This document shows positions 1 to 25,323 of a stretch of 64,000 nucleotides of DNA, piece after piece. The number at the start of each line of letters is the position of its first letter. The first letter of the stretch is position 1. The notes below the pieces were generated by a model. It saw nothing but the letters and a program-made list of their open reading frames with translations. It did no database searches and was not told the origin of the DNA. Source of the DNA: an uncultured Acholeplasmatales bacterium. Lineage in GTDB: Bacteria; Bacillota_I; Bacilli_A; Acholeplasmatales; Anaeroplasmataceae. Both the position numbers and the translations under genes were made by a program. Location: positions 4,481 through 68,480 of the forward strand of contig CALUXJ010000001.1 of NCBI GenBank assembly GCA_944324725.1. The letters run 5' to 3'.

Positions 1-1847
1 GCCCACTAGGCTCTATTCAAAATGCTTTAGCAGAAAGTAAGACTAAAACTCCAACCTATGTTTTTGGTATTATTTTACTTTATTGCATTATACTTGGTAG
101 AACTATTTGTGGCTATTTGTGTCCAGCTGGTTTATTACAAGAATTACTTTATAAAATCAAAACACCTAAACTTAAAAAAAGTAAAGTTACTAGAATCCTG
201 TCATATACAAAGTATGTATTGTTATTTGTCTTTGTCATAGGTATTCCACTAATGTATGCCTTACAAGAGAACAATATGCCAGTTCCTGGTTTTTGTAAAT
301 ATATTTGCCCAGTAGGTACTTTTGAAGGTGGGGTATTCCTTTTAATTCCTCAAAGTAATCAGGACTATTTTGCTATGCTAGGTGGCTTATTCTCCTGGAA
401 ATTCTTAATAATGCTATTAATAGTTTTATCATCTATCTTTATTTATAGAGTATTTTGTCGGTTTTTATGTCCACTTGGTGCAATTTATGGTCTATTTAAT
501 CGCTTATCAATTATCGGGGTTAAGGTCGATAAAAGTAAGTGTACAAATTGTCATGCCTGTGTTAACTTCTGTAAAATGGATGTTAAAGAGGTTGGTGACC
601 ATGAGTGTATTATGTGTGGTGAATGTATAGATGTTTGTAAGGATGACGCTATTAAGTGGAAAAACATTATTAAACGCATTAAAGAAGAAAAGGCTTTAGA
701 AGCTACTTTAGTTTCTGAACTACCTCAACCAATTAATGCTACTGATGTGGCAACTGAAATAAATAGTAAAGCTTTATTAAATACGGCAGCCGTAGAGGTT
801 AAAAATGAAACTTTACCTACAAATACAAACTCTAGTCAGGAGATAAATGCTATTGCTAGTCAAAATACTAATAAAACTAAGAAAAGTAAAAAATCATTGT
901 ACGCTAAGATAGCTGCTTATGTTGGCTTAATTGGTATTTTAATTATTGTTTTAGTATTTACGAATGTGGATTTTAGTAAAAAGTATTATTCACAAAATAT
1001 GATTTTAGATAGCTTCACGACAAAGCTATATTCAGAACAAGAATATAATATTAATAATAGTGAGGCTAGAGTTAAACTACTATATTTCTATGATGTTTAT
1101 GATAAAGATACATTTACTGCTATAGAAGAAGCAACTTCTGAGCACGTTGATTCCATCTTAATCAGTAAATATGATAATAAAGAGGAATATAAATCTCTAG
1201 TAGCGACAGATTTTGCTGCTTCAGCCTTAATTTTTGGCTATGATTCAGTTAATCAAACCGAAATTAGTAAGTTCAGTGAAACGATTAGTTATCCTTATTT
1301 GGTTATTCTTGATAAAGATAATAAGATTGTTGTAGCAGAACAAACTAAATATGATTCCTCATATTATACAAATTACATTATGCCACTAGCTAATGACGTT
1401 GTTATTGGTAACGAAGTTGGTAATATGTGTTTAACTCAAGACATAAAACTTATTAGTGACGATAGTGTAATAAATATTAGTGATTATTTAGGTAAAATTG
1501 TTGTACTTAACTTCTGGTATATAGAATGTGCACCATGTAAGGAAGAATTACCTTACTTTAGTCAAGTTAATTCTGAGTATGATGAAGTAGAAGTTATTGC
1601 TGTTTCTAGTAATATGTGGTACACAATGGCCGAAGAAGATACTAAGGCATATATTGAAGCTCAACAATTTGATTTAACCTATGCCTATGATAATCCAGGT
1701 GAATCCTATACGATTGCCCTTTTTGGTAAGGCCGATGCTTATCCAATGACAATTATAATTGATCAAGAGGGGTATATTCGCTATAAAGCTGCCGGCTCTG
1801 TTAAAGAAGATGTTTTACGTAGTCAAATTGAAGCTTTATTAGCTTAA
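1..1847 (+). CDS. Membrane polyferredoxin (COG0348/NapH-like) fused to extracytoplasmic TlpA/ResA-like thioredoxin domains; 5' end cut by the window edge
   Basis: Frame 3 is open from nt 3 (PLGSIQNALAESKTKTP...GRTICGYLCPAG), so the ATG at 117 in the ORF track is internal. Three CxxCP motifs (CGYLCP, CKYICP, CRFLCP) lie next to TM segments, with two ferredoxin-type motifs (CTNCHACVNFC, CIMCGECIDVC). These are followed by an N/T/S-rich linker, one TM helix (AAYVGLIGILIIVLVF), a Trx-like module without CxxC (VKLLYFYDVYDKDTF) and a C-terminal redoxin module with FWYIECAPCKEE. Confidence 0.85.
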   Translation, partial: PLGSIQNALAESKTKTPTYVFGIILLYCIILGRTICGYLCPAGLLQELLYKIKTPKLKKSKVTRILSYTKYVLLFVFVIGIPLMYALQENNMPVPGFCKYICPVGTFEGGVFLLIPQSNQDYFAMLGGLFSWKFLIMLLIVLSSIFIYRVFCRFLCPLGAIYGLFNRLSIIGVKVDKSKCTNCHACVNFCKMDVKEVGDHECIMCGECIDVCKDDAIKWKNIIKRIKEEKALEATLVSELPQPINATDVATEINSKALLNTAAVEVKNETLPTNTNSSQEINAIASQNTNKTKKSKKSLYAKIAAYVGLIGILIIVLVFTNVDFSKKYYSQNMILDSFTTKLYSEQEYNINNSEARVKLLYFYDVYDKDTFTAIEEATSEHVDSILISKYDNKEEYKSLVATDFAASALIFGYDSVNQTEISKFSETISYPYLVILDKDNKIVVAEQTKYDSSYYTNYIMPLANDVVIGNEVGNMCLTQDIKLISDDSVINISDYLGKIVVLNFWYIECAPCKEELPYFSQVNSEYDEVEVIAVSSNMWYTMAEEDTKAYIEAQQFDLTYAYDNPGESYTIALFGKADAYPMTIIIDQEGYIRYKAAGSVKEDVLRSQIEALLA

Positions 1848-1860
1848 GGAGGGAAATAAA

Positions 1861-3297
1861 TTGCAAAAGATACGAAAATTGTTTTTAGGTTTACTAGCAG
1901 TTGGGTGCTTAAGTCTAACTCTTACTGCTTGTAAAGATGACCCAAGTGTTAGTTCCCTTAGCTTAAGGGGCTATCCTAACACTTTTACGGTGGGGGAAGA
2001 ATTTAGCTCTAAGGGACTATTAGTTGAAGCTACTACAAAAGATGGCACAATTAATGTTAGTGATGTGGCTACTATTGATAATAGTAAAGTTGATATGACT
2101 AAGCCAGGAGTTTATGCTGTTTTAGTTAAATATGAAAATATTGAAATGCCTTATTATATCACTGTAGAACCAGTAGTAAATGAACAAAGATTGATTGCTC
2201 TAGCAGCTGATACAACCAATGTTAAATTAAATTATGCTATTGGCGAAACTTTTGATAGTACAGGCTTAGCTCTTATTGCTACTTATCAAAATTCTAATGA
2301 TGATCCTAATGAAGTTAAATATCTAACTGATTTAACAGATTTTAATATTGTAATAAGGGATAGTAATAATTTAAATGTTACAGGAGCCTTTACAACTTCA
2401 GGTACCTACTATGTTTATGTTACTCAAGGTTCAGTAAGAACAAGCTTTACTATTAATGTTATTAATGAAAGAAGTAGTGTTGCGGATGCTGTTAGTGCAG
2501 CAGTTGCTAATCAAGCTTCAGTAGCTGGTGGTAGTTCTTATAGCACAATTAATTCGAATATTCCTTATGATTATGCTAATACTTCCGTTTTATATGAATA
2601 TGGTGATAATTTATTAGCTTTAAGTTATTATAATGGAGCTAATTATTATGAGTGCTATAGTCTAAAAAATGGCGTAGCTAGTGGTTATAAGGTTAATGAA
2701 GCAACTAACCTATCTAGTGTATTAGCTGATGTAACAGCTGATAGTATCAAAGGTCCAAAATATAGTCTTTGTGCGGGCACAAGAGAATATTTTGGTGCTG
2801 AGCAAATGCTTAAGGCCCTATATGATTTAGGAAATAGCAACCCTAATAACGATTATAGTGAAACAATTAGACGGGTGGGAACTGACACAGGCGGTATCAG
2901 ATATGAGTATAGCTTTAGTTTTGGTCTTTTAGAAAGTCCAGCTGCTAACACTTATTATTTACACAAGATTAGCGTTAGCTTTGCTTTAAGTACTATTAAT
3001 ATTTTAGAATCACTAATAGTTGAATCTAATACATATGTAGTAAATAATTCCAAAACAGATTTTACTATTGTTCCTAAAGGTGAGCCAAATAGCCAGGCCT
3101 TTTATAGTCCAGATAGAGTTTTACCAGGAACTAACTATCCAAGTGATTTCCCAGTTATTACTTCTAATTATTCAGTCAGTGATTGTATGGCTCGTTTAAA
3201 GACAACAACGTCTAAGTCTAGCTATTCTTATAAATATCAAATATCACAATATGGTGGACAACGTACTGCCACTAGTAAATATCCTGATTTAGGCTAG
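1861..3297 (+). CDS. Surface lipoprotein with two N-terminal Ig-like modules; function unknown (paralogue of the next gene)
   Basis: AGGAGGG RBS 7 nt upstream of a TTG start. Signal peptide with lipobox LTLTAC. Two repeats of the pattern Y..TF.VGE.F...GL.V.A........V......D.....PG.Y.V.V.Y. C-terminal block TDFTIVPKGEPNS...DCMARLK is shared with 3310-5805. Confidence 0.75.
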   Translation: MQKIRKLFLGLLAVGCLSLTLTACKDDPSVSSLSLRGYPNTFTVGEEFSSKGLLVEATTKDGTINVSDVATIDNSKVDMTKPGVYAVLVKYENIEMPYYITVEPVVNEQRLIALAADTTNVKLNYAIGETFDSTGLALIATYQNSNDDPNEVKYLTDLTDFNIVIRDSNNLNVTGAFTTSGTYYVYVTQGSVRTSFTINVINERSSVADAVSAAVANQASVAGGSSYSTINSNIPYDYANTSVLYEYGDNLLALSYYNGANYYECYSLKNGVASGYKVNEATNLSSVLADVTADSIKGPKYSLCAGTREYFGAEQMLKALYDLGNSNPNNDYSETIRRVGTDTGGIRYEYSFSFGLLESPAANTYYLHKISVSFALSTINILESLIVESNTYVVNNSKTDFTIVPKGEPNSQAFYSPDRVLPGTNYPSDFPVITSNYSVSDCMARLKTTTSKSSYSYKYQISQYGGQRTATSKYPDLG

Positions 3298-3309
3298 GAG
3301 GTGTCAAGA

Positions 3310-5805
3310 ATGAAAAAAAGAATATTAAGCTTAATCACAGCTTTACTTGCCATTTTTATTCTTGCAGCTTGTAAAACTCAAGCCGTAACAGATTTAAGTT
3401 TATCAGGTTACACGAGTAGTTATACAGTAGGAGATACTTTTAGTAGTTCTGGTCTTATAGTTGAAGCTGTTGCCGGTAGTGAAAAAACTAATGTAACTGC
3501 TGAAGCTAGTATTGATGCTTCTGCAGTTGATATGACTACACCAGGCACTTATGCGGTAGTAGTTAAATATGGTGATGTTCAAAGAGCCTATTATGTAACA
3601 GTAAATGAAGAAGAAAACACACAAACTTTAATTGGTCTCGAGATTGATACTACTAAAGCTAAGCTTAGCTATTTAACGGGTGAAACTTTTAGTAGCGATG
3701 GAATAGCTCTTATTGCTACCTATAGTAATTCGGATGGTTCCTCTGATACAACTAAATATTTAACAGATTTAACTACTTTTACAATTGAGGTTAAGGATAG
3801 TAATTCTAATTTAGTTACAGGTTCTTTTACTAGTGCTGGTAGTTATGAAGTTATAATTAGTCAAAATGATGTTAGTCAAAGCTACAATATAACGGTTACT
3901 AATGGGGCAGCTAGTGTGGAAGCGGCAGTTAACGCTGCGATTGCTAATAAAAATTTAGTGGCTGGTGGGGAATCTATTAATAATGACCCTAATACGAATA
4001 GTTATTTTGGTCGTACCACTGCTAGCTATGAATATGGTCCTAATCTAAATTCTATTACCTATACTTACCAAGGTAATCATTATGTGGAAAATTATTTCAT
4101 AAATAGTGATAACGAAGTAGTAGGTGTAAGAGTTAATGAAGATTTTGTTCAATCTGATAGTGACCCATATGCCAAACCATTAACTATTCTTGATAACTTA
4201 GATAGTAGCTATGTTAATGGTATTGAATATTCACTTTTTGCAGGTAAGGTATATTGTACAGGCGCAGAAACCTTGCTACAAACTTTATATGATTTAGGTA
4301 AGAGTAATCCTAATTATGATTATGCGGAAGCTATTACCGAAAGAAGTAATGATTTAGGTCAAATTGAATATGTTTATAATTTTAGTTTTGGCTATTTAGT
4401 AGAAGCACAAACAACAACTGTTTTCTATTTGAATATGGTTGATGTTTCCTTTACATTAGGCGCAGGTAATTTTTTAGAGTCTTTAGAAGTATCAGATGAT
4501 ATTTATGTTGTTTCTGAGATGATGACACAATTTACTATTATGCCTAAAGGTGAGCCTAATAGTGATATTTTCTATGCGCCAGACCGAATTTTCCCTGATG
4601 GCTCAACAGAAGCTACAACTAATCCAACTACAGGTTATCCTAAAGATTTCCCTGTTATTTTGGATAGTTATACGATTAATGATTGTATGGCTAGATTAAA
4701 ACCTGATGCAGGTACTGCTAGTACACATTATTCTAATTCCTTTAGTATTCATCAATATAGTGGCGAAAGAGATGCGGTTAATAAATACCCAGAATCTGAA
4801 ATTTATGTTCAAAGTTACAATGTGCGTGATACAGCTGGTAACATTTTAGATGATTTGACCTTTGATACAACAATAGATAATTCTAACACCTCTGATAGTG
4901 CTATTAATTTAGTTTTAACAGATTTCAATTCAGAAACAGCTAGAACAATCGATACAGTAAGCTTTATTTATAATGGTAAAAACATTGGTAATTTCTCAGA
5001 TGGTAGTAATGGTTTAATATTGTACTATAATTTGACGGAGAACACATTGCGAATTAGATGTTTCAATTATGGTGTTTATGAATTAGAAATGGTGACATTA
5101 AAGACGAGTAAGAAAATTACTATCAATGTTGATTGGCGGGCACCACTAACCTTTACAACACAGGTTTTCCAAGATAATGTTAATCCAGAATTAGCAACAT
5201 TTGTAAAGCGAAATACGATTGATTGTTTTGTTGGTGATACTATTTACTTTAATGTTGAACCAGATGCAACAGGTGATCCGGAATATATTACAAGTTGTTC
5301 TAATTCTAGTGCAATTATCATTAATAATCCAACAGAAAATTTACCAGAAGTTTTAGTTAATTATCAAGGTTACTTTAGTTCATTTACTACTAATGAAGTT
5401 GGAACTTACGTTATAGATTTAAAATCTAATCGTAATAATATTCACTCAATATTAACAGTTAATGTTAAACCTGAACCTGATTTCTCAGAAAATTTAACTG
5501 GTACCTATACTTTTGAGGCTTTAAGTACTCCCAATAAAGTAATGGGGACAATTACTTTCACTCTTGATTCCGAACTAGAAGGTTTAGGTGGTAGTGCAGA
5601 GATTAAATTAGGTGATTTTACAGAAATAATTTCCTTTAACTATGCTAATAGAGCCTTCAGTAATGTTGGTCATATTGATGGTAATGAGGGACGTATTAGT
5701 TTGTCTTTAAATGAAAATTTAGAGATTGTAATTTCTGGTTCTTATCATTTAGATGGTAATGTTGTTTATTCCTTCAATTCAGTTTTGACACGTCAGGAGG
5801 GATAA
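3310..5805 (+). CDS. Surface lipoprotein, a longer paralogue of 1861-3297 with a C-terminal extension of about 350 aa
   Basis: GGAGG RBS 8 nt before the ATG at 3310 (the track uses GTG at 3301). Lipobox ILAAC. Colinear similarity to the preceding protein (LSLSGYTSSYTVGDTFSSSGLIVEA..., TQFTIMPKGEPNS..., NDCMARLKP). The extra C-terminal region has no motif I recognise. Confidence 0.75.
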   Translation: MKKRILSLITALLAIFILAACKTQAVTDLSLSGYTSSYTVGDTFSSSGLIVEAVAGSEKTNVTAEASIDASAVDMTTPGTYAVVVKYGDVQRAYYVTVNEEENTQTLIGLEIDTTKAKLSYLTGETFSSDGIALIATYSNSDGSSDTTKYLTDLTTFTIEVKDSNSNLVTGSFTSAGSYEVIISQNDVSQSYNITVTNGAASVEAAVNAAIANKNLVAGGESINNDPNTNSYFGRTTASYEYGPNLNSITYTYQGNHYVENYFINSDNEVVGVRVNEDFVQSDSDPYAKPLTILDNLDSSYVNGIEYSLFAGKVYCTGAETLLQTLYDLGKSNPNYDYAEAITERSNDLGQIEYVYNFSFGYLVEAQTTTVFYLNMVDVSFTLGAGNFLESLEVSDDIYVVSEMMTQFTIMPKGEPNSDIFYAPDRIFPDGSTEATTNPTTGYPKDFPVILDSYTINDCMARLKPDAGTASTHYSNSFSIHQYSGERDAVNKYPESEIYVQSYNVRDTAGNILDDLTFDTTIDNSNTSDSAINLVLTDFNSETARTIDTVSFIYNGKNIGNFSDGSNGLILYYNLTENTLRIRCFNYGVYELEMVTLKTSKKITINVDWRAPLTFTTQVFQDNVNPELATFVKRNTIDCFVGDTIYFNVEPDATGDPEYITSCSNSSAIIINNPTENLPEVLVNYQGYFSSFTTNEVGTYVIDLKSNRNNIHSILTVNVKPEPDFSENLTGTYTFEALSTPNKVMGTITFTLDSELEGLGGSAEIKLGDFTEIISFNYANRAFSNVGHIDGNEGRISLSLNENLEIVISGSYHLDGNVVYSFNSVLTRQEG

Positions 5806-5806
5806 G

Positions 5807-7216
5807 ATGGTAAATAATTTTAAGAAAATCAAAGCTAAGTTTACAATAGAAACCTTAATAATAGCCTTATTTGTTGGCTTATTTAGTGGGGTCTTAGTTA
5901 GTTCTATTCTAGTTCTAATTTATAAACAATTAGGCTTAGAATATAACTTGTTATTATTTATTTTAATTGGTGTTGGTGTTTTTGTTTTGTTAAGCTTAAT
6001 CATATTTTTAATCTTTAAGCCTAACAACATTAAGGTTGCCAAGCGAATTGATAGACAATTAAATCTTAAAGAAAAAGTTCATACGATGGTTGAGTATGAG
6101 GGAAAAAATGGTTATTTGATTGATATGCAAAGAGCCGATACTAAAGATAAATTAAATAATCTTAAGGTTAAAAGAGTTAAGATGAAATTTAGTCTATACC
6201 TTCTTATTTTACCAGTTGTAGCTCTTGCCTTTTGTCTAAGTTCAATCATGGTCAAGGGTAAGGAAGTGGATGAACCAGTAGTGGTTGAACCACCAGTTTC
6301 TGGGGATCCATATATTATTGCTCAATTAAGAGATTTGATTAGAGAAGTTAATGAAGACGTTGACTTAATGTCTGATGTTAAGGTAGCCTACACTACTCAT
6401 TTAGAAGATTTAATAGTGGCCATTAATCGACCGGATCTAACTCGTTCAGATGAGGTGGAAGCTGTCAACTCAACAATTACCAATCTCAGTTATTCTAGCA
6501 TTAATTTGAATTCAATTGATAATATTACGCAAGTACTAAGTAATTCAAATTTAGAGGAAATGCATAATTTAGGTGTCGCAATAGCTACCTATGACGAGGA
6601 ACAAATTAATACGGCTTTAGATAGTATTGCCTCTTATGTCAAAAAAGTTTCTGGTAGTCAAAGACAATCAAGTTATGAAAAGTTGGTAGATGAAGGTTTT
6701 CAACTAGTTGATAATGAACGTTTGGAAGATACAGATGAATTATATCAAGTATTTACAGCGTTTAAGACTAATTTAGCTACAGCTATTGCGGACAATAATT
6801 ACAATACGGCAATTGAAGAAGTGGTTAGTGAAGCTAAGGCTGATTTAGCTAGTTCAGTTAAGAGACAGGTAGAAACATTGGTAATGGCTAATTATTTGGA
6901 AGAAAGATTAATTGCTATTTTTGAATTACCAAATACTGACACACCGGTAAATCCTCCAATTCCCGATGTACCTGGAATAGATGAGGATCCAAGTAAGCCT
7001 TCAACAGGTGGTGGTGGTCATGGTGACACAATTTATGCTGGTGATGATATTTTTTATGATCCAGATGAAGGTTTGGTGCCTTATTATGAGGTAATAAGCA
7101 AATATAGTGCTTATATTGAGGGTCTAGTTCAAGATGGAGTTATTTCCGAAGAATTAGCTAACTACTACATTGAATACTTTAACAATTTATATCAAGCAGA
7201 CGAGGGTAATGAATAA
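5807..7216 (+). CDS. Membrane protein of unknown function (two N-terminal TMs, a third TM, an external helical region and a Pro/Gly-rich tail); possibly DUF4175-like
   Basis: ATG 1 nt after the upstream stop, with a GGAGGG RBS. TM helices at about aa 15-38, 48-70 and 128-148. AKRIDRQLNLKEKVHTMVEY follows TM2. Tail PVNPPIPDVPGIDEDPSKPSTGGGGHG. The position immediately upstream of MoxR/DUF58 resembles the uncharacterised partner protein seen in MoxR-DUF58-BatA_N clusters; that family assignment is from memory. Confidence 0.6.
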   Translation: MVNNFKKIKAKFTIETLIIALFVGLFSGVLVSSILVLIYKQLGLEYNLLLFILIGVGVFVLLSLIIFLIFKPNNIKVAKRIDRQLNLKEKVHTMVEYEGKNGYLIDMQRADTKDKLNNLKVKRVKMKFSLYLLILPVVALAFCLSSIMVKGKEVDEPVVVEPPVSGDPYIIAQLRDLIREVNEDVDLMSDVKVAYTTHLEDLIVAINRPDLTRSDEVEAVNSTITNLSYSSINLNSIDNITQVLSNSNLEEMHNLGVAIATYDEEQINTALDSIASYVKKVSGSQRQSSYEKLVDEGFQLVDNERLEDTDELYQVFTAFKTNLATAIADNNYNTAIEEVVSEAKADLASSVKRQVETLVMANYLEERLIAIFELPNTDTPVNPPIPDVPGIDEDPSKPSTGGGGHGDTIYAGDDIFYDPDEGLVPYYEVISKYSAYIEGLVQDGVISEELANYYIEYFNNLYQADEGNE

Positions 7217-7217
7217 T

Positions 7218-8225
7218 ATGGAAAATGTAGAATTAAAAGAACAAGAACTGGAAAAGGTAGCAGAATTTAGTGCTACGATTGCCAAGATTAAAGACGAAAT
7301 CAAAAAGGATGTCGTTGGTCAAGAAGACATTATTAATAATGTTATAATTGCTATTATTGCTGGGGGTAATATTTTACTTGAAGGTGTACCAGGGGTTGGT
7401 AAAACACGTTTGGTTCGTTCATTGAGTCAAATTTTAAGCTTACCATTCTCTAGAATTCAATTTACACCAGATTTAATGCCAAGTGATGTCACTGGTACTA
7501 ATGTAATTGACCGTGATGCTAATGACAAGATGCAAATTGTTTTCCAAAAGGGACCTATTTTTGCTAATTTAATTTTAGCTGATGAAATTAACAGAGCTAC
7601 TCCTAAAACTCAATCAGCTTTACTAGAAGTAATGCAGGAGCATAAAGTTACAATTTCTAATAAAACTTATAAAATGGAAGAACCATTCTTCGTATTAGCT
7701 ACTGAAAACCCAATCGAACAAGATGGTACTTATCCACTTCCTGAAGCTCAAATGGACCGTTTTATGTTTAAGTTATTGATGGGTTTCCCAGGTATCGATG
7801 AACTTAAAGATATCGTTACAATGACACAAATTACAATGGCTGAAACAGCTAATACTATAGTAGATGGTAAGACTATTCTTGCTATGCGTGAATTAGCTAA
7901 AACAGTGCCATTAGTTGATGATGTCCTAACCTATGCAATGCATCTTGTTACAGCAACTCATCCAGAACTTGCTGGTAATGATATTGCAAAGAAATATATT
8001 AGATATGGTGCTTCCCCAAGAGCGGCTCAAGCTATCATTACGGCTAGTAAAGTTAAAGCTTTAATTGATGGCAATTACAATGTATCTTATGATGATATTG
8101 ATGAGCTAGCTTATCCCGTTTTAAGACATAGAATTAAATTATCTTACAATGCTATCAATGATCATTTATCAATCGACGATGTAATAGGACTATTAATTAA
8201 GGATTTAAGAAAGCTTAAGAAATAA
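7218..8225 (+). CDS. moxR: MoxR-family AAA+ ATPase (AAA_3)
   Basis: Walker A LLEGVPGVGKT, FSRIQFTPDLMPSDVTGT, Walker B LADEINRA and LEVMQE...V are typical MoxR motifs. The start was moved to ATG 7218 (GAGGG RBS, 1 nt after the upstream stop) instead of 7170, which overlaps the previous gene. Confidence 0.92.
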   Translation: MENVELKEQELEKVAEFSATIAKIKDEIKKDVVGQEDIINNVIIAIIAGGNILLEGVPGVGKTRLVRSLSQILSLPFSRIQFTPDLMPSDVTGTNVIDRDANDKMQIVFQKGPIFANLILADEINRATPKTQSALLEVMQEHKVTISNKTYKMEEPFFVLATENPIEQDGTYPLPEAQMDRFMFKLLMGFPGIDELKDIVTMTQITMAETANTIVDGKTILAMRELAKTVPLVDDVLTYAMHLVTATHPELAGNDIAKKYIRYGASPRAAQAIITASKVKALIDGNYNVSYDDIDELAYPVLRHRIKLSYNAINDHLSIDDVIGLLIKDLRKLKK

Positions 8226-9103
8226 TGTATTCTATTGATGAAAAATTTTTACAAAAGGTTGAAACCCTAGATCTAATCCTAAAAAATAGTAATTATGGTT
8301 CTTTTGGGGGCAACCATAAATCCAAGTTATTTGGTTCATCGAGTGAATTTGCCGATTATCGTGATTATATGGCCGGTGATGAAATCACTAAAATTGACTG
8401 GAATGCTTATCAAAGGTTTAATAAGCTTTATTTAAAACTTTATTTAGATGAAAGACAGGCTCACAACAAAATTTATATTGATGCGAGCCGGTCTATGGTT
8501 TTTGGTAAAGGTGATAAGGCTGATTATGCCCTTAAACTTGCTGCTATTTTAGCCTATATTTCTATTTGTAATATGGATAAAGTGTCAATTTATTGTATTA
8601 AGGATAATAGAATTGAAGAGGTAGCTATTAATTTATCGAGCAAAGACGCCTACTATAGCGAAATATTAAAGCTAAATAATATTGAGTTTTCAGGTGATTG
8701 CTTTATTAGTGAGAGCTTATTACCTTTAAATGTAGGTTATGGTGATGGCTTGTCTGTTTTGATTTCGGATTTCTTAACTGACAATAATTATGAGGCTGGA
8801 ATTGATCATTTAGTTGATAGAAAAAGAGATGTCTTATGTATTCAAATCCTCTCAAAGGATGAGGTTAAACCTAAAATTCGGGGAAAGGTTCAACTTTACG
8901 ATTCAGAAGACAATAATAAAATTTACAAGAAAAATGTAAATAAGGATGTAATTATTGCCTATGAGAAAGCTCTTAATTACATTAAAGAACGTCTACAAAA
9001 TTATTGTAGTTCACGTAATTCTTCTTATTTATTCGTCCAAAGTAATGCGGATGAAGGAGAAGTATTTATGAATATTTTAACGCAAATGGGGGTATTAAAA
9101 TGA
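8225..9103 (+). CDS. DUF58 domain protein (MoxR-associated, degenerate VWA-like)
   Basis: DYRDYMAGDEITKIDWNAYQRFNKLYLKLY is the hallmark DUF58 motif. TAATG overlap with moxR. Confidence 0.88.
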   Translation: MYSIDEKFLQKVETLDLILKNSNYGSFGGNHKSKLFGSSSEFADYRDYMAGDEITKIDWNAYQRFNKLYLKLYLDERQAHNKIYIDASRSMVFGKGDKADYALKLAAILAYISICNMDKVSIYCIKDNRIEEVAINLSSKDAYYSEILKLNNIEFSGDCFISESLLPLNVGYGDGLSVLISDFLTDNNYEAGIDHLVDRKRDVLCIQILSKDEVKPKIRGKVQLYDSEDNNKIYKKNVNKDVIIAYEKALNYIKERLQNYCSSRNSSYLFVQSNADEGEVFMNILTQMGVLK

Positions 9104-10959
9104 GTTTTTCTTATCCACTTGGTTTTTTGATTCTAATTTTTATCCCTGTTTTAATTATTCTTTATATTCTAAAGAATAAATTTACAGAACAAACAGTATC
9201 TTCGACTTATATTTGGACATTGAGCGAAAAATTCTTAAAAAGAAGAAGACCCATTTCGCGGATATATGGTATATTGAGCTTGGTTTTACAATGTTTACTT
9301 GTTGCGGTTATTGCTTTGGCTGTTGCTCATCCACAAATAAAATTGCCTAATCAGGCTCGTGACTATTGCTTTATTATTGATTCTTCTGGTAGTATGCTAA
9401 TTAAAAATGGAGACAGTACCCGTTATGATTTAGCTAAGGAAGAAATCAGTAGTATTATAGATAATTCCCAATTAGGTTCTACTTATACACTTATTAGTTG
9501 TGCGGAAGAACCAACGGTTATTTATGAAGCGATTACCAATAAGGAAAGTGCTATTTCCCAACTAAATACCTTAACTATCACTAGTTTAGATAGCAAATGT
9601 ATAGATGCTATGCCCTTAGCACAAAGCTTATATGATGATAATCGTTCTTTGCAGGTATACGTAGCTAGTGATAAGGATTATGCTACAAATAACATAAATT
9701 TTATATCCGTAGCTAGTCAATCTCGCAATTTCAGCTTTGCCGATGTTATTTATAATGTTAGCTTACGTCGTCTTACTCTTTCTGGAAAAATAAATTCCTA
9801 CAATGCGAGTGGTGAAGTTAAGGTTGTATTAAATGTCGATGGAGAAGATTTAGCTGAGACTAGTGTTACAGTTAATCTTAATGAAACGGCTGATTTTAAC
9901 TTTACGGATGTTAATGTGACTGAAAACTATCAGTCTATTGCTTTAAGCTTAGTAGCTGATGATGACTTAGCTGCTGATAATACATATATTGCTTATAATT
10001 TGGTTCAAGAAAGAGTTAATAAAACGTTGTTAGTTAGCAATAATCCACTTTATTTAGAATCATTATTAAAGGCAATTGGAACACTTGATTTAAAGGTTAT
10101 AAAGCCAGAAGATTATGATACTAGCATTTATTATGGCTATGGACTTTATATCTTTGATGGTTATAATCCAAATGAATTACCTTCAGATGGTAGTGTATGG
10201 CTAATTAACTTTTCAGATGGTGTAATGAGCGATTATGGCTTTAGCTTTCAAAAAACCTTAGACTATGGTAATGTTGGTATAGTGACTGATTTAAATGATC
10301 GAAGTAATTCACTTTTAAATCAACTAAAAGCCAATTTAACCGGAGATACCTTCTATATTACAAAATATCAAAAATATGGTCTTTATAACAACTTTACTAC
10401 TTTGTTGAGTTGTGAAGGTAATCCAGTTTTGTTTGTGGGAAATACTAATTCTGGTAATAGAGAAGTAGTATTTGCTTTCGATTTACATAACTCAAATTTG
10501 CCACTTTCTATGGACTTTATTGTTTTAGTTAGTAACTTGATTAATTATTCTTTCCCTAACGTAATAGATACTACAGCATATACGGCTGGTGATACCCTAA
10601 ATGTTAATGTTTTAGCTGGTTGCTCAAGCATTGAGGTAATTAATCCTAGTGGTGTTAGTACGTATCTTGATACAAGTAGTTCAATTAGTGAGTATGTTTT
10701 AACAGAATCTGGTACTTATAATGTCAATGTAACTATTGATGGACGGGTAACTAACTTCAAAATTTTTGCTAGTTATCCTGATGCTGAAAGCCAGGTCATT
10801 GAAACACCAGAGGTAGAAAATTTAAGTTTAACTGGTGAACCAGAGGCTCACTATGGTGATGGAATTTACCAAAGCTTAATTTATTTATTTATCGCTTTAG
10901 GTGTTATCTTTATATTAGATTGGATGGTGTATTGTTATGAGCAATATAAGCTTCGCTAA
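9100..10959 (+). CDS. BatA_N (double-TM aerotolerance-regulator N-terminal domain) plus VWA-domain membrane protein, with a C-terminal TM anchor
   Basis: ATGA overlap with the DUF58 gene. N-terminus FSYPLGFLILIFIPVLIILYILK plus a second TM. MIDAS-like motif FIIDSSGSM. C-terminal TM LIYLFIALGVIFILDWMVY. Confidence 0.8.
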   Translation: MSFSYPLGFLILIFIPVLIILYILKNKFTEQTVSSTYIWTLSEKFLKRRRPISRIYGILSLVLQCLLVAVIALAVAHPQIKLPNQARDYCFIIDSSGSMLIKNGDSTRYDLAKEEISSIIDNSQLGSTYTLISCAEEPTVIYEAITNKESAISQLNTLTITSLDSKCIDAMPLAQSLYDDNRSLQVYVASDKDYATNNINFISVASQSRNFSFADVIYNVSLRRLTLSGKINSYNASGEVKVVLNVDGEDLAETSVTVNLNETADFNFTDVNVTENYQSIALSLVADDDLAADNTYIAYNLVQERVNKTLLVSNNPLYLESLLKAIGTLDLKVIKPEDYDTSIYYGYGLYIFDGYNPNELPSDGSVWLINFSDGVMSDYGFSFQKTLDYGNVGIVTDLNDRSNSLLNQLKANLTGDTFYITKYQKYGLYNNFTTLLSCEGNPVLFVGNTNSGNREVVFAFDLHNSNLPLSMDFIVLVSNLINYSFPNVIDTTAYTAGDTLNVNVLAGCSSIEVINPSGVSTYLDTSSSISEYVLTESGTYNVNVTIDGRVTNFKIFASYPDAESQVIETPEVENLSLTGEPEAHYGDGIYQSLIYLFIALGVIFILDWMVYCYEQYKLR

Positions 10960-13588
10960 TCCGTATTTAATATTGATTTTAATTCCAATTTTATTAATTA
11001 TTTTAATTCCCTTTTTTATTACCTTTAGAAAGGATAACATTGGAATTAGAAATATTTTTAGTTTAATATTACACATTGTTATTTCTATTTTAATCGTTTT
11101 TGTTATAGCAGGTATGTCATATAAAACAGCTATTGATGAAACTAACATTTATGTTTTAGCTGACGTATCCTATTCAACTAATCGAAATCTAGATACCATT
11201 GATTCATATGTTAATGAATTGGAACATAATATTGATAATAAAACTAAATTAGGTGTTGTATGTTTTGGAACAGATACACCCTACGTTTTAACTACGCCTG
11301 GTGAAAGACTTAAAAGTGTTAAGCAAGCTGTAACGGAGGAACGGGTTGATCAAAGTGGAACGGATATTGCTGGCGCTTTACGTTACACAGCTAGTTTGTT
11401 TAACGATAGTGTTATTAAACGTATTATCTTAATAACTGATGGTGATGAAACTAATAATGGCAATGTTTTAAATGTAGTTAATGAATTATATTCCCAAAAT
11501 GTCTATGTTGATGCCATTTATTTAGATGATAATTTGCCAAGTGAAGAAAAAGAGGTGCAAATTAATGAAGTTAATTACACCTTGTCAACCTATCAAAACA
11601 AAGCAGAAAGCGTTCAAATAACTATTCAATCTAATACGGATAGTAGTACTTCTTTAATTGAACTTAAAAAAGATGGTAATGTTGTTGAAACACGAGCTCC
11701 TAAATTATCTAAAGGCTTAAATGTCATTACTATGCCGCTAGATACGAGTGTAGCTGGTGAAAATAAATATGAAGTAACAGTTAATGTTACAGGTGATACT
11801 TCACCATATAATAACACATATAGATTTACCCAAACTGTTACAGAAAACATTAAAATATTATATCTAGCAAGTAATGATAATGAAAAAACTAAAGCTAGTA
11901 CCTATTTTAAGAAAGATAACACAGAGGTAACTTATCTAAATATTAGTAAGGATTCTATTCCATACACAGTAGAAGATTTATGTGCTTATGATGAATATGT
12001 ACTTTCAGATGTTGACGTAACAAAAATTAGAAATGGCTCCCAGTTTATGGCAAATCTAGATTTAATGATTTCACGCTATGCTAAAAGTTTGATAACGTTA
12101 GGTAATACTTATACGCAAAACAATAGTGAAGAGTATGAACTCCAAACTTTAGCCGATATGTTGCCGATTAAATATGGGGAAAGCGAAAGAGATGGTAAGT
12201 TAATTTGCTTATTAATTGATATTTCTAAGAGTATGACAGAATCTTACCATTTGCAAACAGCCAAAGAGGCAGCTAATAAAATTGTTGATTTAGCTTCCGA
12301 ATCTGACAATATTATGGTTTTAACCTTAAGTGGTGAAACAGCCTTCCTGCAAATTAGTACTAGTGTTAATGATGGTACAAGATTAACGATTAAAAATAAA
12401 ATTAATTCCGTTGAAGAAAGACAAGGTACACTTATTGGTTCAAGCTTAAATGAAACCTATAAAGCAATTGCTGATTTGCCATTTTTGCAAAAGCAAATCT
12501 ATTTAATTTCTGATGGTCGTAATATGACTGGTGATCCAGTAAATGCTATTGACATTGCCGGTACTATTTATAGAGAAACTGGAACAACTATTTCTTGTAT
12601 TGGTATTGGCTCAGATGATGGTTCCAATTTATTACAAAATATTGCTAAAAGTGCGGCTGGTAAATATTATACAGCTAATGAAGTTAAGGATCTAGAAGAG
12701 CTATTTGACAATGAAATATCTGAAGATGTTGGAGGTACAACTATCCCGACTGGACCGGCATTAGATGTAATTATTAACCGAGAAAGTGATGATACTCTAG
12801 CCAATATTGAAGGTAAAATAGAAGCTATTCGAGGTATGTATGCAGGAACAGCTAAAAATTCAGCAACGACAGTTTTAGACATTATCTACTCTACTAATAT
12901 AAGAGATTATGAGTATCCACTTTACTCTTATTGGCGTTATGGAAATGGCACTGTCTCAAGCTTTTCTTGTGATATTAATTCTACTTATTGGTTAAGTAAT
13001 TGGGGCAGTGGTTCTAATGGTGAAAAGTTCTTGCAAAACCTAGTTACAGCTAATTTACCAAATCAAAGGGAAGAAGTTCCTTTAATTGTTAATGTAGAAA
13101 CAGAAGGTTCAACTAGTTACGTTTATGTAAATACACCAACGTTAAATCCTAATGCTAAATTAGAGTTAACCTTAACTACTCCTGATGGTGAGCAAATTAA
13201 AAGAGAATTAGTTTATACAACAGAAGATTATCAAACTAGCTTCACTTCTAATTTAGTTGGTAGCTATCGTTTAGAGATTGCATATGAATTAAACAATGTT
13301 TCTTATACTAAAGAATATGTCTACGACGTTTCTTACCAAGAAGAATATAATAGCTTTGCTTACTATGAAATATCAAATTTAAATCATATGGTTAATAATG
13401 GTAATCCAGTTTATGAAAATGCAAGTAGTGTAGATTTAAGTATTGATGAGACTAAGAGTACAACTTATACTTATGATTTTACAGTATTATTTATGACTAT
13501 AGCTATTTGCCTATTTGTTGTTGATATCTTTATTAGAAAAGTAAAATGGGCTGATATCAAACAGTTATTTAATAGACATAAGGCCTAA
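10937..13588 (+). CDS. BatA_N-anchored protein with two VWA domains and a C-terminal TM anchor (BatB-like)
   Basis: 23-nt overlap with the upstream gene. N-terminus FANPYLILILIPILLIILIPFF plus a second TM. Two DxSxS MIDAS motifs (VLADVSYS, LLIDISKSM). PLYSYWRYGNGTVSSFSCD...W block as in Bat-cluster VWA proteins. Terminal TM VLFMTIAICLFVVDIFI. Confidence 0.8.
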   Translation: MSNISFANPYLILILIPILLIILIPFFITFRKDNIGIRNIFSLILHIVISILIVFVIAGMSYKTAIDETNIYVLADVSYSTNRNLDTIDSYVNELEHNIDNKTKLGVVCFGTDTPYVLTTPGERLKSVKQAVTEERVDQSGTDIAGALRYTASLFNDSVIKRIILITDGDETNNGNVLNVVNELYSQNVYVDAIYLDDNLPSEEKEVQINEVNYTLSTYQNKAESVQITIQSNTDSSTSLIELKKDGNVVETRAPKLSKGLNVITMPLDTSVAGENKYEVTVNVTGDTSPYNNTYRFTQTVTENIKILYLASNDNEKTKASTYFKKDNTEVTYLNISKDSIPYTVEDLCAYDEYVLSDVDVTKIRNGSQFMANLDLMISRYAKSLITLGNTYTQNNSEEYELQTLADMLPIKYGESERDGKLICLLIDISKSMTESYHLQTAKEAANKIVDLASESDNIMVLTLSGETAFLQISTSVNDGTRLTIKNKINSVEERQGTLIGSSLNETYKAIADLPFLQKQIYLISDGRNMTGDPVNAIDIAGTIYRETGTTISCIGIGSDDGSNLLQNIAKSAAGKYYTANEVKDLEELFDNEISEDVGGTTIPTGPALDVIINRESDDTLANIEGKIEAIRGMYAGTAKNSATTVLDIIYSTNIRDYEYPLYSYWRYGNGTVSSFSCDINSTYWLSNWGSGSNGEKFLQNLVTANLPNQREEVPLIVNVETEGSTSYVYVNTPTLNPNAKLELTLTTPDGEQIKRELVYTTEDYQTSFTSNLVGSYRLEIAYELNNVSYTKEYVYDVSYQEEYNSFAYYEISNLNHMVNNGNPVYENASSVDLSIDETKSTTYTYDFTVLFMTIAICLFVVDIFIRKVKWADIKQLFNRHKA

Positions 13589-13600
13589 AGGAGGGAAAAG

Positions 13601-15052
13601 ATGAAAAGAGTATTAAGTTTTGTTATTTTAATGCTACTAGCATTGTTTACCCTTTCTAGTTGTGTTGGTCAAACAACTGGTCCCCATGGTGGTAATGGTA
13701 ATGGTGGTACCACCGTTGATCCAAATCCGGATGTCGATGATAGTGATCTTATTACTTATACTGTTTCACTTTATCGAAACAATCAAATTTGGATTCCTAA
13801 TATTGAAATCAAAGCCATTTTTGTTAATGACTATTCTGTATCAGAAGTCGTAATTGACGATTTTTACGGGGTGGCTACTTTTAAAGGTGATGGAGATTAT
13901 AATGTGCATCTTAGCACAGTTCCAGCTGGCTATACTTATGATCCTAATATTTATACAGTTGACCCACAACATACAGATTTAATTATTGATCTTTATCCAA
14001 TATCTAGCTTTGATTCAGGTACTGGTGCTGGTCCATATAATCCAGAAGCTTATGACATTAGTAAAACAGGCTATTATAGTGTTCAGCTATCATCTATTAA
14101 TGATAGAAAATATTTCCATTTCTTGCCAACTCAATCTGGCGAATACGCAATTGAGTCATTATGTGATATTTATGCCGATGAGGTTGATCCAATTGGTATC
14201 AAGTATACGGGTAATGAGCACTTTATCAGTGAAGAATATGGCTCAGAAGTGTATCAAGATGGTGGTGTTAGTTTAGAATCAGGTTTTACTACTAACTTCA
14301 AATTTAGTATTACCTTTGATGTTACAGAATTGAATGTAGCTCGAGTCTTTGCTATAGAAGCGGAAAGTAAAATTGAAGAATATCCAGTTACAGTATATTT
14401 TAAGGTTGAATATGTTGATTCTTACTCTAAAGGACCTGCCTTCAATCCTAAAGTTATTGAACCAGAAGAAGCCTCTATAGATGTAACGCCAAAAGAATCA
14501 GGCTCTTTACACTGGTTAACAGACTTAAATGGTGGTGTCCTAGATGTTAGAGATTATGCTTATAACGAAGCTGATGGTTTCTGGCATGTTTATGATGAAG
14601 AAAAATATGCCTCAACTAATGGCTATGGTCCTACACTTGTTTGTCGTGTTAATATCAATATGACTATTCCTGCTATAGGTGATAGTATTGCAACTGCTCT
14701 AAGTTATGGTCCAACTTTTCTATGTTTATTAGGTGATGATGGTGAGCGTCTATGCTATGATTATTTCCTATATGGTAGAGTTGAATCGGGTGGCGTTTTA
14801 CAGGGACCTGTCTTTAATGAAGATGGTTCTAAGCTGGATTATCAAGGCGATTGTTATATGAATTATATGAATAGTGAAGGTATGGTTTACGTAACTAACG
14901 AATTGATGGAATTCTGGCAACTATTAGCTAATAATAAAGAGTACTTTAAAGATGGTATGGGTTGGGTTGAAACTCAAACTAATTCATATGGTCAATACAT
15001 TTCGGCTGGTCAAGAAGATCAATGGCTTTTTGCTTGTGGTTACTATGCCTAG
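13601..15052 (+). CDS. Surface lipoprotein of unknown function (prealbumin/CarboxypepD_reg-like module plus a PPC-like module)
   Basis: AGGAGGG RBS. Lipobox TLSSC followed by a Gly/Asn/Asp-rich linker. DGDYNVHLSTVPAGYTYDPNIY and YYSVQLSS...YFHFLPTQSGEYAIES resemble the modules in 18442-19374. Confidence 0.7.
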   Translation: MKRVLSFVILMLLALFTLSSCVGQTTGPHGGNGNGGTTVDPNPDVDDSDLITYTVSLYRNNQIWIPNIEIKAIFVNDYSVSEVVIDDFYGVATFKGDGDYNVHLSTVPAGYTYDPNIYTVDPQHTDLIIDLYPISSFDSGTGAGPYNPEAYDISKTGYYSVQLSSINDRKYFHFLPTQSGEYAIESLCDIYADEVDPIGIKYTGNEHFISEEYGSEVYQDGGVSLESGFTTNFKFSITFDVTELNVARVFAIEAESKIEEYPVTVYFKVEYVDSYSKGPAFNPKVIEPEEASIDVTPKESGSLHWLTDLNGGVLDVRDYAYNEADGFWHVYDEEKYASTNGYGPTLVCRVNINMTIPAIGDSIATALSYGPTFLCLLGDDGERLCYDYFLYGRVESGGVLQGPVFNEDGSKLDYQGDCYMNYMNSEGMVYVTNELMEFWQLLANNKEYFKDGMGWVETQTNSYGQYISAGQEDQWLFACGYYA

Positions 15053-15069
15053 CATTAAATGATTAAATG

Positions 15070-15115
15070 TCTCTAAGGTAGATAAGTCACTCTGCCTTAG
15101 AGATATTTTTATTTT
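15070..15115 (+). terminator. Intrinsic terminator ending the nine-gene operon
   Basis: 9-bp stem TCTCTAAGG (15070-15078) / CCTTAGAGA (15095-15103) followed by TATTTTTATTTT. Confidence 0.65.
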
Positions 15116-15319
15116 ATATATCTTACTTTTACTTTTTATAATTTTAGAACAGTTGTATAAAGAGTAAAAACAGCTAATAATTGAGATAAATAAGAGGGGT
15201 TTTAGCTAATGCCATTATTGATATATGTTAGTTGTTAGGCAATACTAAGAAAAAACGTTTTAAAAATTTAAAAAAATCGAAAAAATGTGTTTTTTTTAGT
15301 ATAAAATTATAAAACTTGC

Positions 15320-15347
15320 TTGATTTCTTGAATTTTAGAGTTATAAT
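15320..15347 (+). promoter_or_regulatory. Sigma-A-type promoter candidate for 15382-18351
   Basis: TTGATT (15320-15325), 16-nt spacer, TATAAT (15342-15347), about 35 nt upstream of the start codon, in a 329-nt AT-rich intergenic region. Confidence 0.45.
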
Positions 15348-23182: not shown

Positions 23183-23183
23183 T

Positions 23184-23207
23184 AGGGACCTTTTTGGTCC
23201 CTTTATT
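23184..23207 (+). terminator. Hairpin between oppA and oppB (a possible partial terminator that would favour oppA transcript excess)
   Basis: AGGGACC-TTTTT-GGTCCCT followed by TTATT. Confidence 0.6.
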
Positions 23208-23233
23208 GGAAAAAAATAGTGGAGGGATAATAG

Positions 23234-24241: not shown

Positions 24242-24249
24242 GTGAGTTT

Positions 24250-25314: not shown

Positions 25315-25323
25315 GTGGTTGAG

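Follow-up and report, generated by a model that had tools for sequence, protein, structure and literature searches.

The stretch of DNA analysed here, a window of 64,000 nucleotides (nt) from an uncultured Acholeplasmatales bacterium (NCBI GenBank assembly GCA_944324725.1, contig CALUXJ010000001.1, positions 4,481 to 68,480 of the forward strand), opens with a densely packed gene cluster in which a set of redox genes stands next to a block of genes resembling the Bat operons. The redox set (module R) encodes for a thioredoxin lipoprotein (u1), a membrane protein with a CXXC motif (u2), and a membrane iron-sulfur (FeS) protein fused to thioredoxin domains (g1). The second set (module M) encodes for the lipoproteins g2 and g3, the membrane protein g4, a MoxR-type ATPase (g5), a DUF58 protein (g6), two membrane-anchored VWA proteins (g7 and g8), and the lipoprotein g9. 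We propose that the cluster is a composite of a reductant-export module and a Bat-like module which are coupled in this lineage, and we estimate the probability of this reading at about 0.5. Each part of the cluster is of a known kind; its novelty lies in how these parts are combined, in a NapH-like conduit that is fused to thioredoxin domains and has a CXXC partner, and in the domain typified by g9.

A first-pass annotation of the window, made from the sequence alone, had described a nine-gene operon in positions 1-15052. The nine closely packed plus strand open reading frames (ORFs) g1 to g9 and their junctions were reproduced exactly, with recomputed distances from g1 to g9 of 13, 12, 1, and 1 nt, -1 nt (TAATG), -4 nt (ATGA), -23 nt, and 12 nt. 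Nine genes are, however, only the minimum. The gene g1 is cut at the left edge of the window (ORF 117(cut)-1847), and we took the upstream 10 kb from the source contig (ena:ERZ28613918 scaffold_150) by exact sequence look-up. In this contig the full g1 product has 678 amino acids (aa) (P0001), of which the window lacks residues 1-64 and holds residues 65-678. The off-window gene u2 (258 aa) ends 3 nt upstream of g1, and u1 (1072 aa, likewise off-window) is located before u2, a further 88 nt upstream. On the 5' side of u1 lies a 238-nt gap with a promoter-like site (TTTACA-17-TAAAAT), and beyond this gap a polyphosphate kinase is encoded. Because u1 and u2 were found upstream of g1, the cluster comprises about eleven genes (u1, u2, g1-g9), and the transcription unit begins to the left of the window.

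Ribosome-binding sites of the GGAGG type precede g2, g3, g4, and g9. A convincing terminator was found only after the ninth gene, as the first-pass annotation had stated. This structure on the plus strand (15065..15118) consists of a hairpin at 15065-15108 with an 18-bp stem containing 5 GC pairs, followed by a T run (TTATTTTATA), and it is the sole strong terminator-like structure in the cluster. The three remaining terminator hits were stems of 5-6 bp within coding sequence, and the total of 4 hits compares with 5.7 +/- 2.3 expected from shuffles. After g9 there is a 329-nt gap holding a promoter-like site at 15320-15347, and then the next gene (g10). Gaps of at most 13 nt or overlaps between genes, together with the lack of a terminator before position 15065, support co-expression of the genes in this species.

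The spacer between u1 and u2 held a stable hairpin in every lineage examined (-15 to -22 kcal/mol, z -3.3 to -5.4), usually with a T-rich stretch 3' of the stem. Position and structure of this hairpin are conserved and the sequences are unrelated. Among the loci compared (numbered here with the prefix L), it is located at 9166-9199 in L002 (88-nt spacer), 9179-9208 in L007, 4010-4036 in L157, 9170-9202 in L159, 9175-9209 in L009, 9144-9171 in L158, 9148-9172 in L160, and 9133-9174 in L005. It looks like a partial terminator, an attenuator, or an mRNA-stabilising element, and would set the expression of u1 apart from that of u2, g1, and the genes after them.

Redox genes u1, u2 and g1

The gene g1 (1..1847, plus strand, 5' end cut) encodes for a NapH/MauN-like membrane FeS protein that continues into an inactive thioredoxin domain and an active (CAPC) thioredoxin domain of the TlpA/ResA type. 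Pfam matches were to Fer4_5 (two stretches), Fer4, and AhpC-TSA/Redoxin. In NCBIfam the N-terminal half was closest to NapH/MauN, with 90.5 bits being under the TIGR02163 cut-off of 213, and the C-terminal part was closest to ResA/TlpA. The layout of NapH-type proteins is present, with membrane helices carrying CX3CP motifs and two C-terminal CxxCxxCxxxC clusters. All 20 motif cysteines of g1 are invariant across 55 homologues. They comprise the motif CX5CX2CX6C (C48-C64), three CX3CP motifs (C100/104, C162/166, C216/220), the two [4Fe-4S] motifs (C244-C254 and C266-C276; 540..638, plus strand; Fer4/Fer4_7 hits), and the CAPC active site of the outer thioredoxin domain (C573, P575, C576; 1527..1538, plus strand).

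For all proteins of the cluster, topology was predicted from hydropathy and the positive-inside charge rule. The [4Fe-4S] motifs of g1 are predicted to be cytoplasmic from the homology to NapH and from their flanking charges. The last transmembrane helix (residues ~365-388; 903..974, plus strand; hydropathy peak 2.56) divides a K-rich cytoplasmic linker, with 4 K/R in the 15 residues preceding the helix, from the acidic thioredoxin domains. The tail after this helix has 21 K+R and 47 D+E and is acidic as in all other exported domains of the cluster (K+R/D+E of 49/166 in u1, 17/62 in the g4 tail, 26/64 in g7, 60/112 in g8, and 22/71 in g9). Charge rule and acidic composition would put the CAPC domain outside the membrane and not in the cytoplasm, which agrees with the external CxxC thioredoxin suggested by the first-pass annotation. 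In the full-length AlphaFold2 (AF2) model, residues ~390-678 form two thioredoxin folds with a predicted local distance difference test score (pLDDT) >90, and a CxxC is present only in the second fold. The membrane/FeS half was modelled poorly (pLDDT <50), leaving the thioredoxin half alone usable. Foldseek matches of the thioredoxin part had target-normalized template modeling scores (TMt) of 0.8-0.87 and included ResA, TlpA, and StoA as well as Etrx1/2, the surface thioredoxins of the pneumococcus.

The invariant CX5CX2CX6C motif (NCYSCPGA...ACPLG, residues 48-64) is encoded left of window base 1, ahead of the first NapH-like helix. To our knowledge, nothing resembling it is present in E. 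coli NapH. By homology-based topology this motif may share the outer face with the middle CX3CP and the u2 CXXC tail, and eight conserved cysteines would then be found on the same membrane side. In one locus of an Anaeroplasma sp. metagenome-assembled genome (MAG) (L089:1781-3728), the g1 orthologue was called as two overlapping genes for a 317-aa Fer4_5 protein and a 333-aa Redoxin protein. Either the fusion is naturally split in this genome, or the assembly contains a frameshift.

The partner gene u2 encodes for a five-helix membrane protein whose C-terminal ...ICTECIGLG is conserved in all lineages examined. It matched the NCBIfam model of the CD1871A family CXXC motif (NF040920) with 39.3 bits against a cut-off of 32, and the charge rule would put its CXXC tail on the outer face. 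A literature search on "CD1871A" retrieved no paper. The product of u1 is a lipoprotein whose thioredoxin domain is ResA-like and carries the sequence CSWC.

The membrane half of g1 is of a kind known from NapH, NosR, and PceC (RdhC), which have the same CX3CP membrane module and C-terminal 2x[4Fe-4S] and are tied to an extracytoplasmic redox domain. NapH-like proteins have been described as modular conduits that carry electrons across the membrane and mostly have an outer domain that is flavinylated, and the thioredoxin-fused form was not described there (PMC8238504). Such conduits were also recognized in a second study, according to which the role of the CX3CP motif is unknown (PMC5928378). 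In contrast to these proteins, the outer module of g1 is a thioredoxin fold and not a flavinylated FMN domain, and g1 has three CX3CP motifs plus the additional invariant CX5CX2CX6C. It also stands without a NapG, NosZ, or dehalogenase partner, and neither a NapG-type partner nor a respiratory reductase was found in the window or the upstream 10 kb. A role as cupric reductase (CcoG-like) or in cytochrome maturation was not adopted, as the CcoG model of NCBIfam scored only 17 bits against g1 and no cytochrome or copper genes were seen.

A second comparison is with CcdA/DsbD and their clients ResA, TlpA, and Etrx1-2 (S. pneumoniae CcdA-Etrx-MsrAB2, PMC3914529), where the same membrane-anchored or lipoprotein CxxC fold needs electrons from across the membrane. 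Unlike in these systems, the genes that we examined near the cluster did not include CcdA/DsbD, and the Pfam matches of the window ORFs scanned and of the called genes of related loci included no DsbD/CcdA family. Here the thioredoxin is instead part of a fusion with a NapH-like FeS protein and has a CXXC membrane protein of the CD1871A type as its partner, with no adjacent Msr or cytochrome-maturation genes. The set u2-g1(-u1), with g1 relatives in at least 595 species-level genomes of gut Firmicutes, looks like an alternative way of powering extracytoplasmic thioredoxins.

An operon of the same composition and order as u1-u2-g1, usually with the CxxC gene in between, appears in a preprint of November 2025 as a "previously uncharacterized" operon of gut Clostridia which consists of a transmembrane 4Fe-4S protein, a CxxC protein, and a TlpA reductase (10.1101/2025.11.06.686285); we matched it by the text of the preprint. 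It was presented as a statistical biomarker of immunotherapy side effects without biochemistry, and this statistical link makes the mechanism of the redox operon worth knowing. In contrast to the preprint operon, for which no MoxR/VWA neighbors were reported, the set of the window lineage is linked to a MoxR block, and its g1 has two thioredoxin folds. The suggestion of the first-pass annotation that the cluster is an undescribed machine therefore no longer applies to the redox set as such. We found no paper linking a u1-u2-g1-type set to MoxR/VWA genes, and a search on Mollicutes and MoxR gave nothing relevant.

The Bat-like block and the g9-type domain

The MoxR block proper begins with g4 (5807..7216, plus strand), a protein with three transmembrane helices and no known family. 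It has a 45-residue basic inner loop and an acidic outer domain of ~317 residues, and gave no Pfam match above cut-off, no NCBIfam match, and nothing significant in a sequence search of the PDB. A g4 homologue precedes MoxR in nearly all related loci of sufficient length. The following gene g5 (7218..8225, plus strand) encodes for a MoxR-type AAA+ ATPase (Pfam AAA_3 209 bits, AAA_lid_2 57 bits) with Walker A GVPGVGKT and Walker B LADE as read from the translation, and is 65-94% identical in related loci. Directly after it, with a TAATG overlap, g6 (8225..9103, plus strand) encodes for a DUF58 protein without membrane helix (82 bits, cut-off 23.4). Neither MoxR nor DUF58 has true membrane helices, the weak hydropathy peak of MoxR being the strand that leads into the P-loop. 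The alternative family bpMoxR scored 49 bits for g5, compared with 209 for AAA_3. A MoxR-vWA defence system of the VMAP/PADLOC types was rejected, as PADLOC gave only weak hits of a generic AAA kind, and none of the other proteins was matched.

The two VWA proteins g7 (9100..10959, plus strand) and g8 (10937..13588, plus strand) each have two N-terminal helices with a basic loop, a large acidic VWA region, a C-terminal helix, and a short basic tail. For g7, Pfam identified BatA (41.5 bits, cut-off 25.9) and VWA_2 (38 bits, cut-off 27), and the protein is predicted to start with a BatA_N double helix, to expose its VWA domain and a long further region on the outside, and to return through a C-terminal helix to a short tail inside. 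The best-conserved peptides of the g7 family are the basic inter-helix loop WxLSE[KR]FLK and the C-terminal DWxVYCYEQ..LR, and this conserved inner loop and tail would be obvious sites for action of a cytoplasmic ATPase/DUF58. In g8 the VWA/VWA_2 models matched twice. BatA_N was not called for this protein at E<=0.01, resemblance to it being limited to the two N-terminal helices, and the Leptospira BatA model reached 41 bits against a cut-off of 380. This is the one point at which Pfam departed from the initial domain assignments, which were otherwise recovered (Fer4_5/Fer4/AhpC-TSA, Big_3, AAA_3, DUF58, BatA+VWA_2, and two VWA domains in g8). All three VWA domains keep the DxSxS of the metal ion-dependent adhesion site (MIDAS), at D94 in g7 (DSSGS) and at D76 and D428 in g8. 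The charge rule suggests that the VWA domains of g7 and g8 face outward and are tethered at both ends, and that the C-terminal domain of g4 is also outside. For BB0173 of Borrelia, a BatA-type protein, the VWA domain was shown by experiment to be periplasmic (PMC5700661), and the outward placement in g7 and g8 agrees with this topology.

Between g1 and g4 are located g2 (1861..3297, plus strand; Pfam Big_3 E 3e-10, lipobox LTAC), a lipoprotein with a Big_3 Ig-like domain, and g3 (3310..5805, plus strand), its longer paralogue of 831 aa, also with a Big_3 match, whose gene call in the source contig starts at the same ATG. The two are 45% identical across all of g2, and lipoboxes are present in g2, g3, and g9. 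In other lineages, Big_3 relatives of g2/g3 often stand on one side or the other of the MoxR block, even where redox genes are missing. The lipoproteins that the first-pass annotation had noted beside the Bat-like module are conserved partners of the MoxR block.

Operons combining MoxR, DUF58, and VWA genes (Bat-type) are widespread, and after 25 years they still lack an agreed biochemical role. The block shares with the Bat/MRP-type MoxR operons (B. fragilis batA-E, Leptospira, Borrelia bb0170-0176, R. leguminosarum RL3499-3502) the MoxR ATPase, DUF58, a BatA_N+VWA protein, and, less clearly, a second VWA membrane protein that may correspond to BatB, as well as the extracytoplasmic VWA domains, which are predicted here by the charge rule. 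It differs from them in having none of the TPR proteins (BatC/BatE), BatD, or SH3 proteins: no TPR, BatD, or SH3 Pfam match was obtained at E<=0.01 in the nine proteins, in accordance with the initial observation that BatC/BatE are missing, and none was found in related loci. Instead, the block adds the constant g4 and the beta-sandwich lipoprotein g9, and often Big_3 lipoproteins. The second VWA protein here furthermore carries two VWA domains, with a membrane anchor at each end, and the host belongs to a Gram-positive-derived, probably wall-less lineage. According to the quotation in PMC3557215, Tang et al. (1999) suggested two possible roles for Bat proteins, the reduction of periplasmic proteins that have been damaged or the export of reducing equivalents, so that the reducing-power proposal was correctly cited in the first-pass annotation.

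The last gene of the block, g9 (13601..15052, plus strand), encodes for an all-beta lipoprotein of an unannotated family (AF2 pLDDT 88). The window protein matched no Pfam family, and 44 family members gave only stray weak hits shared by at most two members each. With Foldseek the AF2 model matched only domain-level, binding-type beta-sandwiches in the PDB (query-normalized score TMq <=0.22), namely a pilin, the C-CPE claudin-binding domain, the ColG collagen-binding domain, and carbohydrate-binding modules (CBMs). No enzyme fold was retrieved in this search, and a catalytic role for g9 was not adopted. The sole invariant cysteine of the mature protein is C479 in WLFACGYY, and the C-terminal motifs DGYYHV, VT.EL..LQ, and QWLFACGYY are conserved. 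Of 1.84 billion cluster representatives, 1423 matched the g9 family at E<=1e-3, and 371 of them did so at E<=1e-30. This is a sizeable family without a Pfam model, and its domain is a candidate for a new domain definition.

Within the cluster, a hidden Markov model (HMM) of the g9 family found matches outside g9 only in the u1 family (set of 19 sequences, E from 2e-11 to 3e-3). The motifs common to g9 and u1 are yFxFxPxxSGxY, (N/E)DGYYHV, G.vpVT.EL..LQ, and QWL..C.YY, which occur twice in u1. When the HMM was run against the 6090 ORFs of all loci, full-length g9-like proteins (E 1e-13 to 1e-34) were found to adjoin u2-g1 in Clostridia. Of the 80 g1-centred loci, 24, mostly of MoxR-less Clostridia, have an ORF that contains the C-terminal domain of g9, and in 11 of them this domain is fused to thioredoxin. 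With HMMs of the non-thioredoxin parts of u1, orthologues of u1 were identified near u2-g1 in about 32/80 loci (E down to 1e-101), and the same HMMs also matched the g9-like ORFs of Clostridia (1e-8 to 1e-11). The usual layout in Clostridia is [u2 g1 ->][<- g9-like][<- u1-like], and most MoxR blocks without a redox set also end in a g9-type protein. The widely conserved set is therefore u1, u2, and g1 plus a g9-type protein, with g4-g8 located between g1 and g9 in the window lineage. The occurrence of a g9-like domain in u1 and beside u2-g1 of Clostridia ties the redox and MoxR modules together, and we regard the apparent relation of g9 and u1 as good supporting evidence, short of proof.

Shorter relatives of g9 were also encountered. 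A 310-aa Flg_new lipoprotein encoded at 18442-19374 of the window matched positions 1-263 of the g9-family HMM (E 1e-27) and has no C-terminal domain, and short g9-like paralogues also follow the cluster in L009, L010, L089, L091, L157, L158, and L160.

Linkage of the two modules

To follow the linkage from the side of the redox set, all cluster proteins were compared by tblastn with the 80 best genome loci of g1, whose family comprises 3748 clusters at E<=1e-3. Directly upstream of g1, u2 was present in 77/80 loci. MoxR/DUF58/VWA genes were nearby only in the two Bacilli-type loci with enough flanking sequence, L009 (Anaeroplasma sp.) and L010 ("CAG:307"). When the neighborhoods of further Bacilli-type g1 homologues and the loci found through g7 were included, the MoxR block adjoined the FeS-thioredoxin gene in 11/12 Bacilli-type lineages, L005/L006 being the exception. 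Between lineages g1 is at most 71% identical (ten full-length copies compared). The genes occur in three orders. In order A (u1 u2 g1 [Big_3] g4..g9; window, L091, and L089) the Big_3 genes stand between g1 and g4, in order B (u1 u2 g1 g4..g9 [Big_3]; L007, L157, L159, and L097) they follow the MoxR block, and in order C ([Big_3] g4..g9 u1 u2 g1; L009, the L010/L116 group, L158, and L160) the redox set stands last.

For the reverse comparison, 66 metagenome loci were fetched via the g7 family, which has 993 clusters with named members in Anaeroplasma, Acholeplasmatales, and some "Clostridia" MAGs. A core of g4-like protein, MoxR, DUF58, g7, and g8 recurred in loci of sufficient length down to 31-36% identity of g7, and a g9-like protein was present in most of these loci.

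On this basis functional coupling of both modules appears plausible, although the links between them are genomic inference throughout. In module R (u1, u2, g1), the two cytoplasmic [4Fe-4S] clusters of g1 would take electrons from a cytoplasmic or membrane donor. The electrons would cross via the CX3CP and CX5CX2CX6C motifs of g1 and the CXXC tail of its obligate partner u2, and would reach the outward CAPC domain of g1 and then the thioredoxin lipoprotein u1. The FeS membrane domain of g1 together with u2 would thereby fill the role of CcdA/DsbD for ResA/TlpA/Etrx and provide a CcdA/DsbD-independent supply to surface thioredoxins. In module M (g4, MoxR, DUF58, g7, g8, g9, and g2, g3), MoxR and DUF58 might act from inside on loops or tails of g4, g7, and g8, and the surface MIDAS-bearing VWA domains might assemble with or remodel the lipoproteins g9 and g2/g3. 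The modules, which would be co-expressed in this lineage, would probably meet at the g9-type domain, whose invariant cysteine is a candidate client that module R may keep in the reduced state or handle reductively. In its most specific form, which we offer tentatively and with rather low confidence, the proposal states that wall-less gut Bacilli export reductant independently of CcdA/DsbD, through a NapH-like FeS membrane protein with a CXXC partner and fused or lipoprotein thioredoxins, and that this exporter supplies a surface complex driven by MoxR, which consists of VWA proteins and of lipoproteins built on a new cysteine-bearing beta-sandwich domain. If true, the idea of 1999 that extracytoplasmic reducing power is the business of Bat-type systems would gain its first concrete support at the molecular level, and a new route for moving electrons across the membrane to thioredoxins would be added. 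The repeated placement of the MoxR block beside a reductant-export set with a common domain leads to a specific hypothesis, namely control of the thiol state of the surface lipoproteins of the block.

Several observations weigh against such a coupling. MoxR/DUF58/VWA genes were found within 10 kb of the FeS-thioredoxin gene in 0/75 Clostridia-type loci. With MoxR-block lineages defined as g7 clusters at >=75% identity and usable flanks required on both sides, the redox set was adjacent in 7 of 14 lineages and absent within ~6 kb in the other 7, and the flanks of the latter held no thioredoxin ORF. The linkage, which the first-pass annotation had proposed to check in relatives, accordingly held for the Bacilli-type lineages but for none of the Clostridia loci and only half of the MoxR-block lineages. 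Because the MoxR blocks are split in this manner, the redox set and the MoxR block are two separable modules which are often, but not always, neighbors. Gene order moreover tracks clade in the g1 phylogeny, and an operon of the Opp type is also kept nearby. Since order follows clade, there are about 3-4 independent linkage events and not 11, and together with the retained Opp operon this means that inherited synteny could account for much of the adjacency. The similarity of g9 and u1 is remote, with HMM E-values obtained from small databases; hhalign (-norealign) gave probabilities of 99.9 and 99.6 for g9 against u1, but these values appeared uncalibrated, trivial hits of 5-11 columns reaching ~98.7, and were not used. 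The low pLDDT of the g1 membrane model weakens the predicted electron path and the predicted side of the extra cysteine motifs. Finally, Leptospira bat mutants had no oxidative-stress phenotype, and the function of the Bat proteins "remains elusive" (PMC3557215).

Many of these points would fit an explanation that we regard as a real possibility, if a doubtful one. According to it the modules are unrelated neighbors, one for general surface thiol maintenance and one for a redox-independent job of MoxR/VWA, and their adjacency and read-through are inherited synteny in compact, strand-biased genomes. The unlinked Clostridia loci, the MoxR blocks without redox genes nearby, and the arrangement by clade with an adjacent Opp operon are all in line with this, as is the location of nearly all genes of the 64-kb window on the plus strand with short gaps. 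Adjacency has, however, outlasted two block rearrangements (orders A, B, and C), just one of the 12 Bacilli-type lineages with the u1-u2-g1 triad has lost its neighbor, and g9-type domains are found in both modules, thioredoxin-fused in u1. An unlikely reading is that the cluster forms part of a surface adhesion and nutrient-acquisition island to which the VWA and Ig-like surface proteins would also belong, and in which the redox set merely keeps the cysteine-bearing exported proteins of an anaerobe functional. The Flg_new lipoproteins, the Opp transporter, and the large subtilase/leucine-rich repeat protein encoded downstream would suit such an island, as would the presence of Opp next to the cluster in relatives and the resemblance of g9 to C-CPE, the ColG domain, pilins, and CBMs. 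The strong terminator and the 329-nt gap after g9 nevertheless set these genes apart, and this reading overlaps with coupled reductant export instead of excluding it.

MoxR AAA+ ATPases are likewise encoded with MIDAS-bearing VWA proteins in NorQ/NorD, CoxD/CoxE, CbbQ/CbbO, and RavA/ViaA, and such MoxR-VWA pairs are established cofactor-insertion chaperones. By analogy to NorQ/NorD, CoxD/CoxE, and RavA/ViaA, the MoxR/DUF58/VWA block could be a maturation machine that inserts or repairs a metal or FeS centre in g1/u2 or u1. The intact MIDAS of all three VWA domains and the extra conserved cysteine motifs of g1 and u2, maybe on the outer face, would agree with this precedent. In NorQ/NorD-type systems, however, the VWA partner is cytoplasmic and directly contacts the ATPase, whereas the VWA domains here are predicted to be outside, away from MoxR, with DUF58 as the only soluble partner. 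All 75 Clostridia loci moreover have u2-g1 without a MoxR block nearby, and MoxR blocks exist without the triad in their vicinity, so that we consider a maturation machine very unlikely.

Genes downstream of the cluster

The gene after the terminator, g10 (15382-18351), encodes for an acidic lipoprotein of 989 aa with one weak Flg_new repeat and has its own promoter-like site. Homologues of 28-42% identity are located at the same position in L089 and L091. Further downstream, an oligopeptide ATP-binding cassette (ABC) operon of the Opp type with an 886-aa SBP_bac_5 protein is encoded at 20522-28036, and a 2505-aa protein with S8 subtilase, PA, Fn3, and Big_2 domains and nine BspA-type leucine-rich repeat stretches at 28263-35780. 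In relatives the Opp operon adjoins the redox/MoxR cluster upstream in order B and downstream in orders A and C, and its retention points to a conserved surface or nutrient-acquisition neighborhood.

Over the whole window (1-64000), 33/37 ORFs of at least 120 aa are encoded on the plus strand, mostly with short gaps. The GC skew is positive throughout, save for a dip at 36-40 kb with two minus strand genes, one of them for a GTPase of the EF-G family, which is consistent with a strand-biased, compact, low-GC (~32%) chromosome.

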